IMG/VR virus record: IMGVR_UViG_3300012155_000195
DNA from: a virus
Taxonomy: Duplodnaviria; Heunggongvirae; Uroviricota; Caudoviricetes
Direction: 5' to 3' (one strand)
DNA: 6,759 nucleotides
Positions 1-6,410 of the stretch are shown here, piece by piece (the stretch's first letter is position 1; each line of letters opens with the position of its first letter). The notes beneath the pieces were generated by a model. The model saw nothing but the letters and a program-made list of their open reading frames with translations, did not search any database and was not told the origin of the DNA. A program made the position numbers and the translations under genes.

Positions 1-249
1 AACTGCAGTCAGTGAACCGATAAGCGTAGCAAACGTCGCTGAAAACACCGCCATCGTCAATGAATGCTGAGCTGCCTGCAACAGACTGTCGTTGTTCATC
101 AGCAGGCTATACCATTTAGTGGTAAAACCCTGCCAGTTGATGCCAAAGCGCGAGCTGTTGAAAGAGTTCACAATCAAAATAATGATTGGAATATACAGGT
201 ACGCGTAGATAGCGGTCATAAAACCGCCGCGAAGCAGTCGACCGATCAT
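1..249 (-). CDS. potC: Spermidine/putrescine ABC transporter permease PotC, N-terminal 83 codons (partial, runs off window at position 1)
   Basis: Minus-strand ATG at 249-247 preceded by AAGGTGGA RBS. Translation MIGRLLRGGFMTAIYAYLYIPIIILIVNSFNSSRFGINWQGFTTKWYSLLMNNDSLLQAAQHSLTMAVFSATFATLIGSLTAV matches my recollection of E. coli PotC N-terminus; hydrophobic TM1 present. About 50% GC, unlike adjacent AT-rich DNA. Not in the supplied ORF track because it is truncated by the window edge. Confidence 0.8.
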   Translation of the reverse strand, partial: MIGRLLRGGFMTAIYAYLYIPIIILIVNSFNSSRFGINWQGFTTKWYSLLMNNDSLLQAAQHSLTMAVFSATFATLIGSLTAV

Positions 250-300
250 TCGAGTTCCACCTTTTTATTCATAAGGTGGAGCACTTTCAGGATTTTGAAT
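246..300. other. Putative host-prophage junction (attL core region)
   Basis: Upstream reading frame ends KKVELE-TGA with the TGA overlapping the potC ATG (ATGA at 249-246), as expected for the potB-potC junction, but that frame is open for only 39 codons and is AT-rich. Perfect 7-bp inverted repeat ccacctt (257-263) / aaggtgg (273-279) with 9-nt loop. Abrupt compositional shift to AT-rich DNA to the right. Confidence 0.4.
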
Positions 301-318
301 TTATTCAACTTTTTCTCT

Positions 319-352
319 TCTCCAAAATCTCTCCAAAACTTTTCCCCAAAAA
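319..352. repeat. Three tandem ~11-bp direct repeats (tctccaaaatc / tctccaaaact / tttccccaaaaa), candidate arm-type integrase binding sites
   Basis: Direct repeats seen at 319-329, 330-340 and 341-352, about 70-100 bp from the putative core, on the int-proximal side. Lambda-type attP has three tandem arm-type sites at a comparable position. Confidence 0.35.
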
Positions 353-610: not shown

Positions 611-1804
611 ATGATTTTTACTAGATTGAAATTTGTAAACCTTTGCGCATTTTCTGATGCAGAATTAAACCTTTCATTTCCCAGAAAGCTGGTTAACTCA
701 CCAATTGATGGTGAATTTTTGTTCGGGAGACCGAAGTTTTATTATCGCAAAGTATGTATCCTCACTGGAGCTAATGCTTCGGGAAAGACTTCCCTTGGTC
801 GTATGTTATGGGGGATTCAGCTTTTCTTGTCCCGGAAAAATTTGTATCAATCAGCTTTTCCTGTAAATGACAAAACCAAGAGTGCTTCCTTTGAGGCAGA
901 TTTTGCAACGGAAGGATTTTTGCATCATCGTATTTTCGTGAAGTTTAGATCCGATAAGTCTGGAACATATTTAATAAGTGAAGTTAAATACGCATCCGTA
1001 TTTATAGGAGAAAATGACTCTTGTGTCAAAACAACAAGAAAATTGGACAGAGTATTTCAAGAGTCAGGTCAGTATATTGCGAATAGCTATTACCATGCAG
1101 TGGCTGCTGATGGGGAATCTGTTTCTTTAGAGAATTTCAAGAAAAATGTGTTTCTTGGTGGATGGTATTATTTATTATCAAAAACAAAGGAAGAAACAAC
1201 AGAAATCTCTGGTTTAGATAAGAATATATTAGAACTTATCATGAAAACCTTTGATCCTAGTATAAAATCAGTTCTTGAATTAAGGGAAAATGATGGTGAA
1301 GAAAATGATAAAGATGTGTTAACGGGGTTTTCTATTCGTTTTCACAATAATGATAATGTTATTGTAACTAACTCTGGAGAAGTTGCTAATTGTGATCGGC
1401 TTTCACGTGGTACATACGATGCTGTAAAATTATCTCATTTTATTAGTTCTATAAATAGTGATTATATGGCATCGTCTGAAACAAATAATATAGCATGTAT
1501 GCTCTATTTTCTTGACGAAAGCATGGCTTATGTTCACTCAGAACTTGAAAGAGCTATCATAACTCTTATTATATCTAAATTGAAGATTAATAGTCAATTT
1601 TTCTATACAACGCATAATTGCGATATTTTTAAATTGGATTTGCCCATTCATTCGTATATTTTCATAAAGAAAGAGCATGATAGCTCAGTATTTGTAGATG
1701 CAAGTGAAATTCTTAAAAAGAATGACAGGAATTTAGCTAAATATGTTGAGAATGATGTTTTTGGTGTTCTTCCCGATTTGTCTTTGATTGAGGCGTTAAT
1801 ATAA
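611..1804 (+). CDS. ABC-type P-loop ATPase (AAA_21/AAA_15-like, OLD/AriA/AbiLi-like ATPase component), 397 aa
   Basis: ORF-track ORF 569..1804; I prefer ATG 611 (RBS 7 nt upstream) over the TTG at 569. Walker A GANASGKTS (767-793), signature-like LSRGT (1400-1414), Walker B MLYFLDE (1499-1519), H-loop TTH (1607-1615). About 200-aa insertion between Walker A and signature. Visibly AT-rich codon usage. Stop TAA overlaps the next ATG. Confidence 0.85.
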   Translation: MIFTRLKFVNLCAFSDAELNLSFPRKLVNSPIDGEFLFGRPKFYYRKVCILTGANASGKTSLGRMLWGIQLFLSRKNLYQSAFPVNDKTKSASFEADFATEGFLHHRIFVKFRSDKSGTYLISEVKYASVFIGENDSCVKTTRKLDRVFQESGQYIANSYYHAVAADGESVSLENFKKNVFLGGWYYLLSKTKEETTEISGLDKNILELIMKTFDPSIKSVLELRENDGEENDKDVLTGFSIRFHNNDNVIVTNSGEVANCDRLSRGTYDAVKLSHFISSINSDYMASSETNNIACMLYFLDESMAYVHSELERAIITLIISKLKINSQFFYTTHNCDIFKLDLPIHSYIFIKKEHDSSVFVDASEILKKNDRNLAKYVENDVFGVLPDLSLIEALI

Positions 1805-2346
1805 TGTCAAAAAATCAGAACGCAAAAATTATTTTTGTTGAAGGTGAAACAGAGTATGCCTTGTTTCAAAAGATGAAGCAAAAAGGTTTGATTAAATTCA
1901 AAAAAATTGTCAAGAAGAATTTTTGGGTTGATGATATAAAGAAATATGCAGTTAACATACCTAAAAATTGTGATTTAATAGTTGTTTTTGATAGTGATGT
2001 TATTGATAGAGTTGATAGATTTATTCAGAATGTTAATTACTTAGCAAGCAGAAAACATTCGATTTTTTTATTGCAACAGACCAGAAATTTCGAAGAGGAA
2101 ATCGCGTATTGCTGCTCTGTAACTTTAAATAAATTGATCGCTTCGTTTTGTAAATGCAAGACATCTGGAGTTGCAGATTTTAAGCGAGATTTTATATCTT
2201 CATCTAATCCTTTTGATAAGCTAGTGGCTTTAGGAATTAACCAGGATAAGTGGTTCAAAAGGGAGTTACATCATTCATTGTTAAGTTTATCAAAGTATAA
2301 ATCAGATTTTTCAACATATTTTAATGCGGATGTTATTAATTTATGA
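1804..2346 (+). CDS. Small TOPRIM-like putative nuclease (DUF4435 / DUF4276 / RloB-like effector component), 180 aa
   Basis: ATG at 1804 overlaps upstream stop (TAATG), indicating translational coupling. N-terminal KIIFVEGETE (E13 at 1840-1842, E15, E17) and LIVVFDSDVID (D63 at 1990-1992, D65 at 1996-1998) match the TOPRIM glutamate and DxD signatures. GAGG RBS at 1790-1793. Confidence 0.8.
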   Translation: MSKNQNAKIIFVEGETEYALFQKMKQKGLIKFKKIVKKNFWVDDIKKYAVNIPKNCDLIVVFDSDVIDRVDRFIQNVNYLASRKHSIFLLQQTRNFEEEIAYCCSVTLNKLIASFCKCKTSGVADFKRDFISSSNPFDKLVALGINQDKWFKRELHHSLLSLSKYKSDFSTYFNADVINL

Positions 2347-2526: not shown

Positions 2527-3645
2527 TTAAATAACCAATTTAACCCATTCCTGACCACGAGTATCGTTATAACGATCGGTGGTTGCCTGGACTTTATGTC
2601 CCAGTAATGTTTTTGTATCAATACCCTGCGCGCGGTACAGTCGTTCTGACAGGGAGCGTTGTTCATGAAATGTTGGCGGAGTTTTTCCTGCTGGTGGAAT
2701 TATCCCTGCCAGATCCCGTGCTTTGGCAAAGTAGTCGCTCAGGTTGTCTTTACTCATCGGCTTTGGTTGTTTCTGGTGCCGACTATGGATTAGATATGGA
2801 CTTAATATTCTGTCTCGGCACCCATCAATAACTTCTTTTAACGTTATCCCAATGGCATCACAGCGTAGTGTAAGCGGTAACGCCAGACGCATTCCGGTTT
2901 TTCCCTGGGTGATATGCAAGTGTTCGTTCCACACATCTGAAAAACGCATGTGGCAAATGTCATCACGGCGCTGACCAGTAACAATCGCAAGAAGCATTGC
3001 GTTACGGATAAAGTGTTTTTCAGGCGTTGCGTTGTAAATTTTTTGCCAGTCTTCCAGGGTGAGTCTGGCTCTGGTTACTTTAGGGATCGGTTTACGGGTA
3101 GCCTCCGGAGGATTCCATCCAGGAGGAACTTCCCCTGCATGCTGTGCTTCTTTATAAATATCAACCCATAATCCACGATTTACTCTCGCTGTGCTGACCA
3201 TGTCTTTATCCAGCCACTCATCCAGTATTAATGCAAAGTCTCTTACTTCCAGTTCTTTCAATGGGTGGTTTCCCAGACGGGAAACCAGGTATGCAGCCAT
3301 TCGGGCTTTTTCTTTGTGAGTTGTAGCTGCAATATCTCCATTTTTCAGTCGCGTGTCCTGTATTTTCAGATATCGATCAACCCATGCCTTTAATCTGATA
3401 CCCCGACGTTTTGTTGCTGACGGACTTTCATCAATTTTGCGCATGAAATATTCAGCTTCTGCTGCAGCTATTCGCTGATTGGCTGTGGAAGCGATTTTTT
3501 CTGCCTTACCTTTGTCTGTTCCGAGTCCGTGAAATTTTCCAGTCACAGGATTTTTATACTGGTAGTAAACTCTGCCAGTTCTGCGATCAAACTTTTCGTA
3601 AAGACCAGCTACGTCAGTGCTGTTTTTTCGTGGCCTCGGTGACAT
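2527..3645 (-). CDS. int: Lambda-family tyrosine integrase (site-specific recombinase), 372 aa
   Basis: Clear collinear similarity to lambda Int by recall: N-terminal arm-binding region (YYQYKNPVTGKFHGLGTDK vs lambda YCYRDPRTGKEFGLGRDR), catalytic motifs TGQRRDD (Arg), QGKTG (Lys), TFHEQRSLSERLY (His/Arg), LLGHK (His), TDRYNDTRGQEW (Tyr nucleophile). AAGGAGA RBS 9 nt upstream of the ATG at 3645. Confidence 0.95.
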   Translation of the reverse strand: MSPRPRKNSTDVAGLYEKFDRRTGRVYYQYKNPVTGKFHGLGTDKGKAEKIASTANQRIAAAEAEYFMRKIDESPSATKRRGIRLKAWVDRYLKIQDTRLKNGDIAATTHKEKARMAAYLVSRLGNHPLKELEVRDFALILDEWLDKDMVSTARVNRGLWVDIYKEAQHAGEVPPGWNPPEATRKPIPKVTRARLTLEDWQKIYNATPEKHFIRNAMLLAIVTGQRRDDICHMRFSDVWNEHLHITQGKTGMRLALPLTLRCDAIGITLKEVIDGCRDRILSPYLIHSRHQKQPKPMSKDNLSDYFAKARDLAGIIPPAGKTPPTFHEQRSLSERLYRAQGIDTKTLLGHKVQATTDRYNDTRGQEWVKLVI

Positions 3646-3883
3646 GAGTTAAAATCTCCTTCAGTGCATCATCATCGCCAGTATGAATTTCCGGCGCAAT
3701 TCCCGTTTCACCAGGTCCAACAAATACTGCTCGGCGATCTATCAGCCAACGCCCACGAATTTTTTGTGGCCTTGGAACGATGTATCCTAGTTTTCCGTAT
3801 TTCACCAGGGTAGTGTTTGTTATTGGGAGACTGAACCGTTTTGGTTTCCACTCGTCGAGCGTTATCAGGTACTGTTCGCTCAT
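3614..3883 (-). CDS. xis: Excisionase (Xis-like recombination directionality factor), 89 aa
   Basis: Immediately upstream of int and overlapping it by 32 nt, as in lambda. N-terminal MSEQYLITLDEW resembles lambda Xis MYLTLQEW. Start chosen at ATG 3883 (GGAG RBS) rather than the GTG at 3892 used by the ORF track. Confidence 0.8.
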   Translation of the reverse strand: MSEQYLITLDEWKPKRFSLPITNTTLVKYGKLGYIVPRPQKIRGRWLIDRRAVFVGPGETGIAPEIHTGDDDALKEILTHVTEATKKQH

Positions 3884-3944: not shown

Positions 3945-6410
3945 TTAAAAATCAGCCTGACTCGGGATCAGTTTTTGCCAGATAGCTGAAACGTATTTTG
4001 CCTGGTAACGGGCGTCATCAAGTGCATTGTGGCGCACCCCTTCGAACGGAATAGCCGTTCTGGCATCGAAGTCTATGGCTTTCCCCAGCTCAACGATTGT
4101 GCGTACATCGCGATCGTTGGACCAGCGCCACGGGCAGGGGATACCATGTCGCTCATATGAACGGCGTAAAATCACGTTGTCGAAGTTGGCTCCATTCCCC
4201 CAGACCCGGACAAAAAATTCACCGGAGTTTTCGTCGATAAATTCCCGCAGTTGCAGCAGTGCATCGTCTAACGGGATTTGATTTACCAAAGTTGCAGATC
4301 TGGCCTCGCTGGACTGTGCCAGCCACCATTCGATGGTGGAACCATCAGGAACAGCACCTTTGTCCATTGCGTCAACTAGGCTGATGACAACATAAAATAT
4401 TGGTCCAATTTCTCCGGTCTGCGGATCGAAAAATATTGCACCTATTGAGATGATCGGGGCATCTGGATTTTTTCCCATGGTTTCAAGGTCGATCATCAGA
4501 TGGTGCCACACCCTGCTGGTGGATGTGATTTGGTGATGACCGTTCATATTAATTAAGGGATCTGTCGCCTCGCCAGTTTCATTATCGCTGGCGTGATGCT
4601 GATTGCCGCCAGGGTTCTCCTTGTGTGGATGTTCAGCGCCTTCCATTTCCTCTGGATCATTTTCCTGAACTTCAACCTGATTCTCTTCATCGAATGTTTC
4701 CTGGTATGTTGCAGCGCCCATCACCGCGCCACAATCAGGGCAGTTGTCACCGCCGGTCTGACCGCAGGCGGTGCAGACTTTTTCCGCTTCCTGTTGCGCT
4801 ACTGGCTCAGGTTGTTTCGTTTCTGGCTCGTTTTGTAACGCATTTGGGCTGTTGTGTTTCGCTTTCTGGTCGTTCTGTTCCGTTTCTTGCTGGTTCTGGT
4901 TCACTGAATCGCGGGGGTCAATCCCCTTCACCCATTTCGGATCATTCGGGTCGCTAATCCCTGCAACAAATTCACCGCGAGAGGCAGCAAGCAACTTATC
5001 GGCGTCAGGCTGGCTGATATTGGCTGCCTGCATAATTTTGTTTACTTCGTCAGCGGTAACTTTTACCTGATTAACTGGATCTACCTGTTTCTGAGTATCC
5101 AGCGATTGCGTGTCCTGGCGATGTTCAGTTGTATCCGGTTCCATTGTTTCAGCCGTTGCCTGTTCATCTGCCATTGCGTCAGACGGTTGTGATTTTTCCT
5201 CATTATTTTTTTCTTCTTCTGTTTCGCGTTCAGCAGCCAGTTCGCGGTTAACTTCTTCCAGGATATCTTTTTCCGGTGTATGTCGTGCAGCAGCGAGAGT
5301 TTCCTCGGTAGGGTTCTCGTGATCAGTCTCTGTTAAATAGGCGTTAATATACCCCTGAAGGCGCCCCGGGTAGTGATAAAACTCAGGGTGTGCGCTTCGG
5401 ATAAGTGCAAAAATAGCGGCACGGGAATAATCCAGAATACCCGGGGTTGAGCGAAGTGCTGCGGACCATTCTTTGAACGGACTTTCTTTCTTCCGGACGA
5501 CTTCTTTTGCGCGACGATAAACGCTGCCCGGGATTTCATAAATATTAAAATCCATCGGAAGTGTGGCCGCTGCAATCTCCACATCCAGCGTATCGAGGGT
5601 GTGCACTAAATTCGGATTGCGATCGGTTTTGTTCCCGCCGCCAGCATTAGCACCGGAAGCCGTGCGGGTGATGCGTGAAACACGATTCCCCTTCATCCAC
5701 TCTTTTGTAAGCAGACCGCGATCGGTGTAGTCAGTGTCAAGGTATGCTTCGATGAAAGCAGTCATCACCCCCAGTTCTGAATTTACGGGGGCGGGAAAAA
5801 CACTGCCAGTATCCCGAACCAGTTTGTATAAATCCCGAATCTCCAGTGGCTCCAGTTGAGCTGCTTTATTTGAAATGGCACGGATTGTAACTGCAGGGAG
5901 TTCCTCATCCAGCGCACTATGTAATGCCCGAAGTTCTTCCCGTGAAACGTGCGTTACTGGTTTTTCGTTGCCGCGTTGAGCAAGCCAGCGAATGGGCAGC
6001 TCCTGACCGGAAACCGGCAGGAGCATGTTCTCCTCAATCTCTGTCATTTCTTCGCCGTTGACGTTGGTATTGTCAGTGCTGGCTGGTTTGTCCTGAACAG
6101 AGGGGGAGGGCGCGATAAGTACCATTGTGATACCATCTTCCCCGCCTTTTTCGTATCGGTTGCAGAATTCGGTATCAAACACGCCTTCCGGAGGAAGGTC
6201 ATTCACAACGGGTAAATGGACGCGAACAGGTTTTTTAAAATCCTCTTCGTCAAATCCGGCATCGTCCATTGCGACAACACCGCGTGATATTGCAACCGAT
6301 AATTTTTTTGCTGTGCGCCAGTAAAAACCGCCTTTAATCCCAAGGCGTTTTCTGACTTTGTCATTTTTGGCTTCGTAATATAGTGCAATTTCTTCTTTAT
6401 CAGTGCTCAT
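3945..6410 (-). CDS. Exodeoxyribonuclease VIII-like mosaic protein with acidic linker, zinc-ribbon-like CxxC..CxxC motif and C-terminal DnaQ-type DEDDh 3'-5' exonuclease domain, 821 aa
   Basis: Long ORF with GAGG RBS upstream of ATG 6410. C-terminal domain has Exo I MIDLETMG (D641 at 4488-4490, E643 at 4482-4484), Exo II GNGANFD (D744) and Exo III HNALDDARYQAKY (H794, D799; 4014-4031). CTACG..CPDCG at residues 546-560 (4731-4775). Glu/Asp/Gln-rich low-complexity regions around residues 360-440 and 500-620. The N-terminal ~350 aa resemble prophage exonuclease VIII (RecE-family) N-terminal regions by recollection only. Confidence 0.85.
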   Translation of the reverse strand: MSTDKEEIALYYEAKNDKVRKRLGIKGGFYWRTAKKLSVAISRGVVAMDDAGFDEEDFKKPVRVHLPVVNDLPPEGVFDTEFCNRYEKGGEDGITMVLIAPSPSVQDKPASTDNTNVNGEEMTEIEENMLLPVSGQELPIRWLAQRGNEKPVTHVSREELRALHSALDEELPAVTIRAISNKAAQLEPLEIRDLYKLVRDTGSVFPAPVNSELGVMTAFIEAYLDTDYTDRGLLTKEWMKGNRVSRITRTASGANAGGGNKTDRNPNLVHTLDTLDVEIAAATLPMDFNIYEIPGSVYRRAKEVVRKKESPFKEWSAALRSTPGILDYSRAAIFALIRSAHPEFYHYPGRLQGYINAYLTETDHENPTEETLAAARHTPEKDILEEVNRELAAERETEEEKNNEEKSQPSDAMADEQATAETMEPDTTEHRQDTQSLDTQKQVDPVNQVKVTADEVNKIMQAANISQPDADKLLAASRGEFVAGISDPNDPKWVKGIDPRDSVNQNQQETEQNDQKAKHNSPNALQNEPETKQPEPVAQQEAEKVCTACGQTGGDNCPDCGAVMGAATYQETFDEENQVEVQENDPEEMEGAEHPHKENPGGNQHHASDNETGEATDPLINMNGHHQITSTSRVWHHLMIDLETMGKNPDAPIISIGAIFFDPQTGEIGPIFYVVISLVDAMDKGAVPDGSTIEWWLAQSSEARSATLVNQIPLDDALLQLREFIDENSGEFFVRVWGNGANFDNVILRRSYERHGIPCPWRWSNDRDVRTIVELGKAIDFDARTAIPFEGVRHNALDDARYQAKYVSAIWQKLIPSQADF

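Follow-up and report, generated by a model that had tools for sequence, protein, structure and literature searches.

Three short direct repeats lie back to back at positions 319–352 of the 6759-bp stretch of DNA analysed here (the window), and they raise the question of which protein reads them. The repeats are very likely the P′1–P′3 arm-type sites of a lambdoid potB/potC phage attachment site (attP), to which the phage integrase (Int) would bind. This assignment to Int is made because of the position of the repeats relative to the core, the occurrence of copies in both arms, the domains of the integrase and the co-variation of motif and integrase. The repeats are very probably an ordinary and expected part of attP with a mechanism of the textbook lambda kind, and those of their features that can be tested in sequence place the array in the phage 21/e14 integrase subfamily.

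Genome alignments identify the window as an attL, in which a lambdoid prophage meets the E. coli potB/potC boundary with its int-proximal end. The 5′ end of host potC occupies positions 1–250 on the minus strand, with its start codon at 250–248, as in the K-12 annotation; the potC annotation was matched in 5425 of 5426 E. coli genomes. In genomes with an empty site, the alignment to the window is restricted to positions 1–271, and in K-12 potB follows directly at the empty site. The closest match among complete genomes is E. coli A19, at 95% identity. A tRNA target was not found in the window by ARAGORN, and Rfam gave no match in 1–2600 at E values up to 1. potC has been named as an insertion site of Stx phages (PMC8065619). 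Other potC-site prophages of E. coli, Stx phages included, have the P′ arm, the core and the integrase in common with the window, which differs from them at position 352 (A instead of C) and in carrying AbiL-like cargo.

The core was delimited by comparing the K-12 attB, the attL of the window, the A19 attR and the intact attP of IMG/VR contigs L015, L065 and L081, which have in common the 14-mer CACCTT(C/T)TTATTCA at 258–271. A repeat search found a perfect 8-bp inverted repeat, TCCACCTT-N9-AAGGTGGA (256–263/273–280), that encloses the common core, has its centre near 268 and supplies the candidate core-type Int sites; it is arranged around the crossover region in the same way as the C-O-C′ core of lambda, CAGCTTTTTTATACTAAGTTG. 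Within the potC family the right arm of this inverted repeat varies, reading AAGGCGG in most members. Placed from the dyad centre, the 7-bp overlap would fall at about 265–271 (TTATTCA). A palindrome, TTGAAT-TT-ATTCAA, at 295–308 (+27 to +40 from the dyad centre) is invariant in the potC family and occupies the position of lambda H′, but is put forward only as a candidate site for a bending protein.

A phage-side T makes an ATG on the minus strand (the reverse complement of 270–272, within window positions 246–280), and the mini-ORF that begins there, MNKKVELE*, takes up the final PotB codons once more and stops in an ATGA that overlaps the potC start. The inverted repeat 256–263/273–280 could pair with the potC Shine–Dalgarno sequence AAGGTGG in a minus-strand transcript. 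At the other junction, the A19 attR (L006 10359–10418), the C-terminus of PotB is replaced by the phage P arm, changing ...LNKKVELE* to ...LNKKVSELDD*; the 46 core-adjacent bp that encode the new PotB end are nearly invariant between otherwise divergent P arms.

Beyond the core, all on the plus strand, P′1 is TCTCCAAAATC at 319–329 (+51 to +61), P′2 is TCTCCAAAACT at 330–340 (+62 to +72) and P′3 is TTTCCCCAAAAA at 341–352, the core of the last unit being 343–352 (+75 to +84). Written as 10-mers, the units are TCTCCAAAAT, TCTCCAAAAC and TCCCCAAAAA at +51 to +60, +62 to +71 and +75 to +84, so that the array spans +51 to +84 overall. P′1 is invariant in 12 potC-family copies, the 10-mer of P′2 is identical to a copy in the P arm, and P′3 is offset from P′2 by 13 bp; the A-runs start at 324, 335 and 348, a spacing of 11+13. 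The shared motif, TCYCCAAAAY, lies outside the core and is distinct from the core-type sequences. These are the sequences given for the three back-to-back repeats in a preliminary description of the locus, which had put them 70–100 bp from the core; measured from the core edge they lie 48–81 bp away, about 20 bp nearer. In the window, P′3 ends in CAAAAA, whereas the other 11 potC-family copies end in CAAAAC, a single change at a position where C or T is usual in all motif classes.

The array stands out from its surroundings by its exactness. TCYCCAAAA occurs in three exact copies in the whole window, all on the plus strand, at 319, 330 and 343, against an expectation of 0.23, and three copies were reached in none of 200 dinucleotide shuffles. 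Three copies within 40 bp were found in none of 3300 shuffles, 3000 of them of the local AT-rich region and 300 of the whole window. The region around the repeats is 68% A+T, and with one mismatch allowed the motif count across the whole window was not above chance, both of which would suit a low-complexity feature that arose by chance in an AT-rich intergenic region. Since the exact count is non-random and the one-mismatch count ordinary, the signal lies in exactness and clustering. The array is, moreover, kept across genera and in E. coli, where the P′ arm is present in 1635 of 5426 complete genomes. Chance is excluded by the exact-copy shuffles, the clustering shuffles and the multi-locus search described below, and its probability as an explanation is negligible. 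Because of its shortness the array stays below the score threshold of Tandem Repeats Finder, whose sole match is an unrelated 21-bp repeat at 4791–4902.

The position of the array is that of the P′ arm of lambda. Measured on J02459 with the overlap centre as 0, lambda carries direct sites P′1 at +53 to +62, P′2 at +63 to +72 and P′3 at +74 to +83, a direct P1 at −144 to −135 and an inverted P2 at −112 to −103. In both phages, three tandem direct repeats thus occupy the int-proximal arm, at +53 to +83 in lambda and at +51 to +84 in the window, and the geometry agrees with lambda P′1–P′3 to within 1–2 bp, as expected of the P′-type position first proposed for them. The motifs themselves are unrelated, the lambda arm motif being (C/A)AGTCACTAT, and the spacing is 10+11 bp in lambda and 11+13 bp in the window. 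The proteins are homologous, with about 35% identity over residues 27–372 and the PF09003 domain in the window Int, and the order xis-int-attP is the same. In lambda P′3 abuts the int stop codon, whereas in the window a 2.1-kb cargo intervenes.

The window encodes an integrase of the heterobivalent tyrosine type (int, 2527–3645, minus strand, 372 aa), with an Arm-DNA-bind_1 domain at residues 1–64 (PF09003, E = 3.7e-21) and a catalytic domain (PF00589, E = 2.1e-18); the lambda-like N-terminal region that had been ascribed to it is therefore present. Near full-length matches were obtained to the lambda Int structures 1Z1B, 1Z1G and 5J0N, with E about 1e-54. All six catalytic residues, which are invariant in the lambda Int alignment, are kept (R226, K249, H327, R330, H350 and Y359). 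The excisionase gene xis (3614–3883, minus strand; PF07825 Exc, E = 7.8e-5) overlaps the start of int and is annotated as excisionase in relatives; from a 270-nt homologue in L001, its ATG start is predicted to lie at 3883. Genes for an 821-aa exonuclease and for a DUF1482 protein also belong to the int-proximal end of the prophage.

A bivalent integrase of this kind would be expected to meet its motif in the other arm as well, and the same motif was sought there, a search that the preliminary description had also called for. The attR of the prophage lies outside the window, and the P-arm evidence comes from relatives with 95–100% identical Int, the arm being taken from the A19 genome and a few intact attP contigs. 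Most IMG/VR contigs end at the int stop codon, and vB_EcoS-640R1 and ST13-OXA48phi12.4 are prophage cut-outs that end before attR. With a position weight matrix derived from the P′ copies, an exact direct copy of TCTCCAAAAC was found at −135 to −126 in the attR of A19 and L183 and in the attP of L015, L065, L081 and L184; when 20000 shuffled 300-bp arms were scored, 15–20 of them (about 0.1%) reached the score of this copy. Viral contigs supplied five further P arms that retain the copy at the same position. The exact copy is thus present in two divergent versions of the P arm (A19 attR; attP in L015, L065, L081 and L181–L186), which differ over much of their length. Outside the 46 core-adjacent bp, they have no invariant block longer than TTCTCCAAAAC.

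Just inside the P-arm copy, at −118 to −106, lies an IHF consensus with no mismatch in L081 and one in A19. This resembles lambda, where a direct P1 (−144 to −135) is followed by H1 (−126 to −114) on the same strand. An IHF-like site with one mismatch at −49 to −37, found in L081 only, corresponds to lambda H2 at −48 to −36. An IHF consensus with at most one mismatch was not found between the core and P′1 by a scan that does detect lambda H′ at +32 to +44, and over the whole P arm the matrix scan gave no inverted copy of the lambda P2 kind with a score of at least 5 bits. In these two respects the potC family appears to differ from lambda, which has an inverted P2 and an H′ consensus.

Weaker direct copies, TCTCGAAAAA, ACTCAAAAAC and CCCTCAAAAT, were noted in the P arm at −149 to −140 in one arm type and at −64 to −55 in both (−65 to −56 in the A19 attR); they could be additional arm-type sites or sites for excisionase (Xis). 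In L180 (about 5322–5900) and L185, this P arm runs into unrelated DNA right after CACCTTCTTAT. The join is more likely a rearrangement between prophages than a clean secondary attB, because the flanking sequence is of a multi-copy, prophage-like kind that most E. coli genomes contain.

The arrangement in the two arms bears on whether Xis, and not Int, binds the repeats. Lambda Xis covers three closely spaced tandem sites, X1-X1.5-X2. The array, with its three direct repeats set roughly one helical turn from each other, resembles them, and a lambda-type xis adjoins int in the window. In lambda, however, Xis sites are confined to the part of the P arm that separates P2 from H2, whereas the array lies in the int-proximal P′ arm at the coordinates of lambda P′1–P′3, and the order of the genes and the polarity of the arms are homologous to those of lambda. 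Furthermore, the lone exact copy is distant from the core in the other arm and stands beside an IHF site, in the manner of lambda P1-H1, and such an isolated far copy fits a bridging bivalent integrase and not a filament protein confined to one arm. Binding by Xis in place of Int is accordingly considered very improbable, even though Xis is inherited together with Int, so that co-variation of motif and lineage cannot by itself separate the two proteins.

Recognition of the repeats by Int would lead one to look for the array beside related integrases at other sites. The closest characterised integrases are those of the phage 21/e14 subfamily (icd insertion), at 44–45% identity. Dodecamers repeated in phage 21 and e14 have reportedly been proposed as arm recognition sites; a description of the arm-type sites of a potC-targeting integrase was not found in the accessible literature. 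In a Klebsiella prophage at dcp, whose Int is 43% identical and whose flanks are unrelated, TTCCCCAAAATC / CCTCCAAAACT / TTTCCCCAAAAT stand in the interval from the host gene to the stop codon of int. Further lineages were obtained by tblastn of a phage collection: the phage-21 type 1H12 (44.8% identity to the window Int) has the P′ triple TCTTCCCCAAAAC / TTTCCCCAAAAC / CCTTCCCCAAAAC, the e14-type PPompW (44.7%) has three copies of CTCTGCAAAAC, Klebsiella Kp4865-4 (50%) has three of TTATCAAAAY, and Providencia PSTCR8lys (44%) has a triple of the CCCCAAAA type. Correspondingly, in relatives at dcp, icd and ompW (Int 43–50% identical), a triple of the relative's own motif (TTCCCCAAAAC, CTCTGCAAAAC or TTATCAAAAY) abuts the int stop codon. 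The triple repeat is therefore kept despite a different insertion site and entirely different flanks, which bears out the comparison with related attP regions that the preliminary description had called for.

The matching of the two arms recurs as well. In 1H12, Kp4865-4 and PPompW, the three of these lineages with an identifiable P arm, each phage's own variant of the motif is found again in its own P arm, and in PPompW a perfect IHF consensus comes after this copy. In Providencia PSTCR8lys, where the core could not be placed, a P-arm copy was not found at up to two mismatches. Six of the seven lineages share an A-run spacing of 11+13; the phage-21 type has 12+13, and lambda has 10+11.

The window has the P′ layout of the phage 21/e14 subfamily, in which three tandem units of about 11–12 bp ending in CAAAAY, spaced 11(12)+13, lie between the core and the int 3′ end. 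In 1H12 the triple abuts int and TTCCCCAAAAT occurs in the far arm, so that motif and layout are almost those of the window, and the e14 type has the same layout with CTCTGCAAAAC. In the phage 21/e14 type and the potC family alike, the phage provides a replacement 3′ end for the host gene that it interrupts. The two differ in the homology used, which is a long stretch of icd in phage 21/e14 and a 14-bp identity at the potB/potC junction in the window; in extent, the outermost repeats of 1H12 being about 400 bp apart and the potC-family attP spanning about 220 bp; and in spacing, 12+13 in the phage-21 type and 11+13 in the window.

A broader, motif-free search scanned the 300 nt downstream of int for any 6-mer with three or more copies inside 45 bp, and was applied to 80 Enterobacterales integrase loci (L100–L179), of which 66 were analysable. 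A triple repeat was present at 53 of the 66, with 11+13 spacing at 45 of these 53 and 12+13 at five; several loci scored as having none hold imperfect copies. The third copy is not a degenerate 11-mer, given that its 13-bp offset recurs at these 45 loci and in six of the seven lineages above. The genome loci fall into the motif classes YCCCAAAA, TTATCAAAA, CTGCAAAA and CAGTAAAA, and motif class follows integrase lineage whatever the insertion site.

This pattern also bears on two readings in which Int makes no sequence-specific contact. The first takes the repeats for a phased A-tract bend or the site of a host architectural protein, in keeping with runs of A4–5 that recur at 11 and 13 bp (near the helical repeat), with the CAAAA part common to all motif classes and with the lack of a clear IHF H′ site nearby. 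The 3–4 bases 5′ of CAAAA nevertheless form discrete classes by integrase lineage, matched between both arms, and a pure bending element would need no single matched copy at −135. An A-tract reading of the low-complexity kind is rejected on the same grounds, the non-A part of the motif changing with integrase lineage and being matched between the arms of each phage. Bending by the A-tracts can coexist with Int binding; as a substitute for it, bending has a very low probability, on a par with that of Xis binding.

The second reading makes the repeats a promoter, UP element or operator, either for potC, which the insertion cuts from its operon, or for the cargo genes. In the lysogen the repeats precede the minus-strand potC start by 70–100 bp, and AT-rich phased tracts can serve as UP elements. 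The same array stands beside int in phages inserted at dcp, icd, ompW and elsewhere, however, where the surroundings are unrelated, and in relatives that have no cargo. A promoter scan found no sigma-70-like site at or adjoining 280–360 on either strand, with an overall count not above that of shuffles, and the promoter and terminator scan gave nothing at the repeats. A regulatory role in place of Int binding is therefore regarded as extremely improbable, more so than either Xis binding or bending alone.

With the repeats read as Int sites, the motif classes can be set against the arm-binding domain. Int residue 29 is Q in 32 of 32 integrases of the YCCCAAAA class, and R in 14 of 15 of the TTATCAAAA class and in 18 of 18 of the CTGCAAAA class; Q29 thus accompanies C-rich boxes, and R29 accompanies TAT and CTG boxes. 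Residues 16 and 18 of the arm-binding domain (window numbering) also separate the motif classes. The correlation is supportive but not decisive because it is confounded by descent and by the co-inheritance of xis with int, and residues 16, 18 and 29 are accordingly put forward as candidate specificity determinants. A more speculative proposal, which is less likely to be right than wrong, is that the phage 21/e14/potC subfamily uses a constant CAAAAY anchor (11+13) joined to a 3–4-nt box (TCC/CCC, TAT, CTG or AGT) that is read by residues 16, 18 and 29. Were this rule true, arm specificity would be predictable from sequence and could be reprogrammed, and the substitution Q29R, with or without K18L, could switch Int to TTATCAAAAC or CTGCAAAAC boxes. 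The combination of constant spacing, changing motif and matching changes in the arm domain provides a data set for the study and engineering of integrase arm specificity.

From the likeness to lambda, the following course of events is proposed. The N-terminal domain of Int (residues about 1–65) would bind each TCYCCAAAAY unit, while the C-terminal domains of the same Int protomers would bind the core-type inverted repeat at 256–280. P′1–P′3, the P-arm copy at −135 to −126 and IHF-induced bends would together fold attP, or attL with attR, into an intasome, which would then perform and direct integration and excision as in phage lambda. Int binding, the use of individual copies in integration versus excision and the exact positions of cleavage are all predictions from DNA sequence.

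Conservation within the potC family helps to set the outer limit of the site. In 12 aligned P′ arms, positions 318–339 and 343–351 are invariant, but such conservation has little power to single out the repeats because the stretch that leads from the core to the repeats is invariant too. The outer edge of the conserved P′ arm lies at 353–372, of which 353–360 is hypervariable in the same alignment. Between prophages with and without cargo, homology stops near 372, and the cargo sits beyond this edge. The attachment-site map is thereby completed for a very common family of potB/potC prophages, found in about 30% of complete E. coli genomes, and the core (258–271), the P′ arm (319–352) and the P-arm copy (−135) allow prophage boundaries at potB/potC to be called precisely.

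The AbiL-like pair, a putative defence system, is accessory cargo that was inserted just beyond the functional edge of attP, and it accounts for the distance to int. The repeats are on the int side of the core, as had been stated, but int itself is 2.2 kb away because the two cargo genes come between. The first encodes an AbiLi-like AAA ATPase (611–1804, plus strand; Pfam AAA_15/AAA_21; PADLOC AbiLi, 1.4e-24), and the second an AbiLii/TOPRIM-like protein of 180 aa (1804–2346, plus strand; weak OLD-like TOPRIM; PADLOC AbiLii, 5e-4). This 2.1-kb cargo lies between the P′ arm and int, outside the recombination site, and is absent from most relatives, in which the int stop codon is 4–65 bp from P′3; in vB_EcoS-640R1, which lacks the cargo, the distance is 65 bp. 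Only about 8–9 genomes hold the cargo with the full region. The segment 611–2346 is probably an abortive-infection or defence cassette at a hotspot between int and attP.

Two further repeats in the window are separate from the arm-type array. A direct repeat, AATCTTACTAT / AATATTACTAT at 390–400 and 409–419 (19 bp spacing), lies in the AT-rich, cargo-specific leader that precedes the ATPase gene and may be a regulatory element of the cargo. The 21-bp tandem repeat at 4791–4902 (5.3 copies, 67% matches) falls within the gene for the 821-aa exonuclease and encodes a repetitive Q/E/P/K-rich linker that joins an ExoVIII-like N-terminal part to an Rv2179c-like 3′–5′ exonuclease domain.
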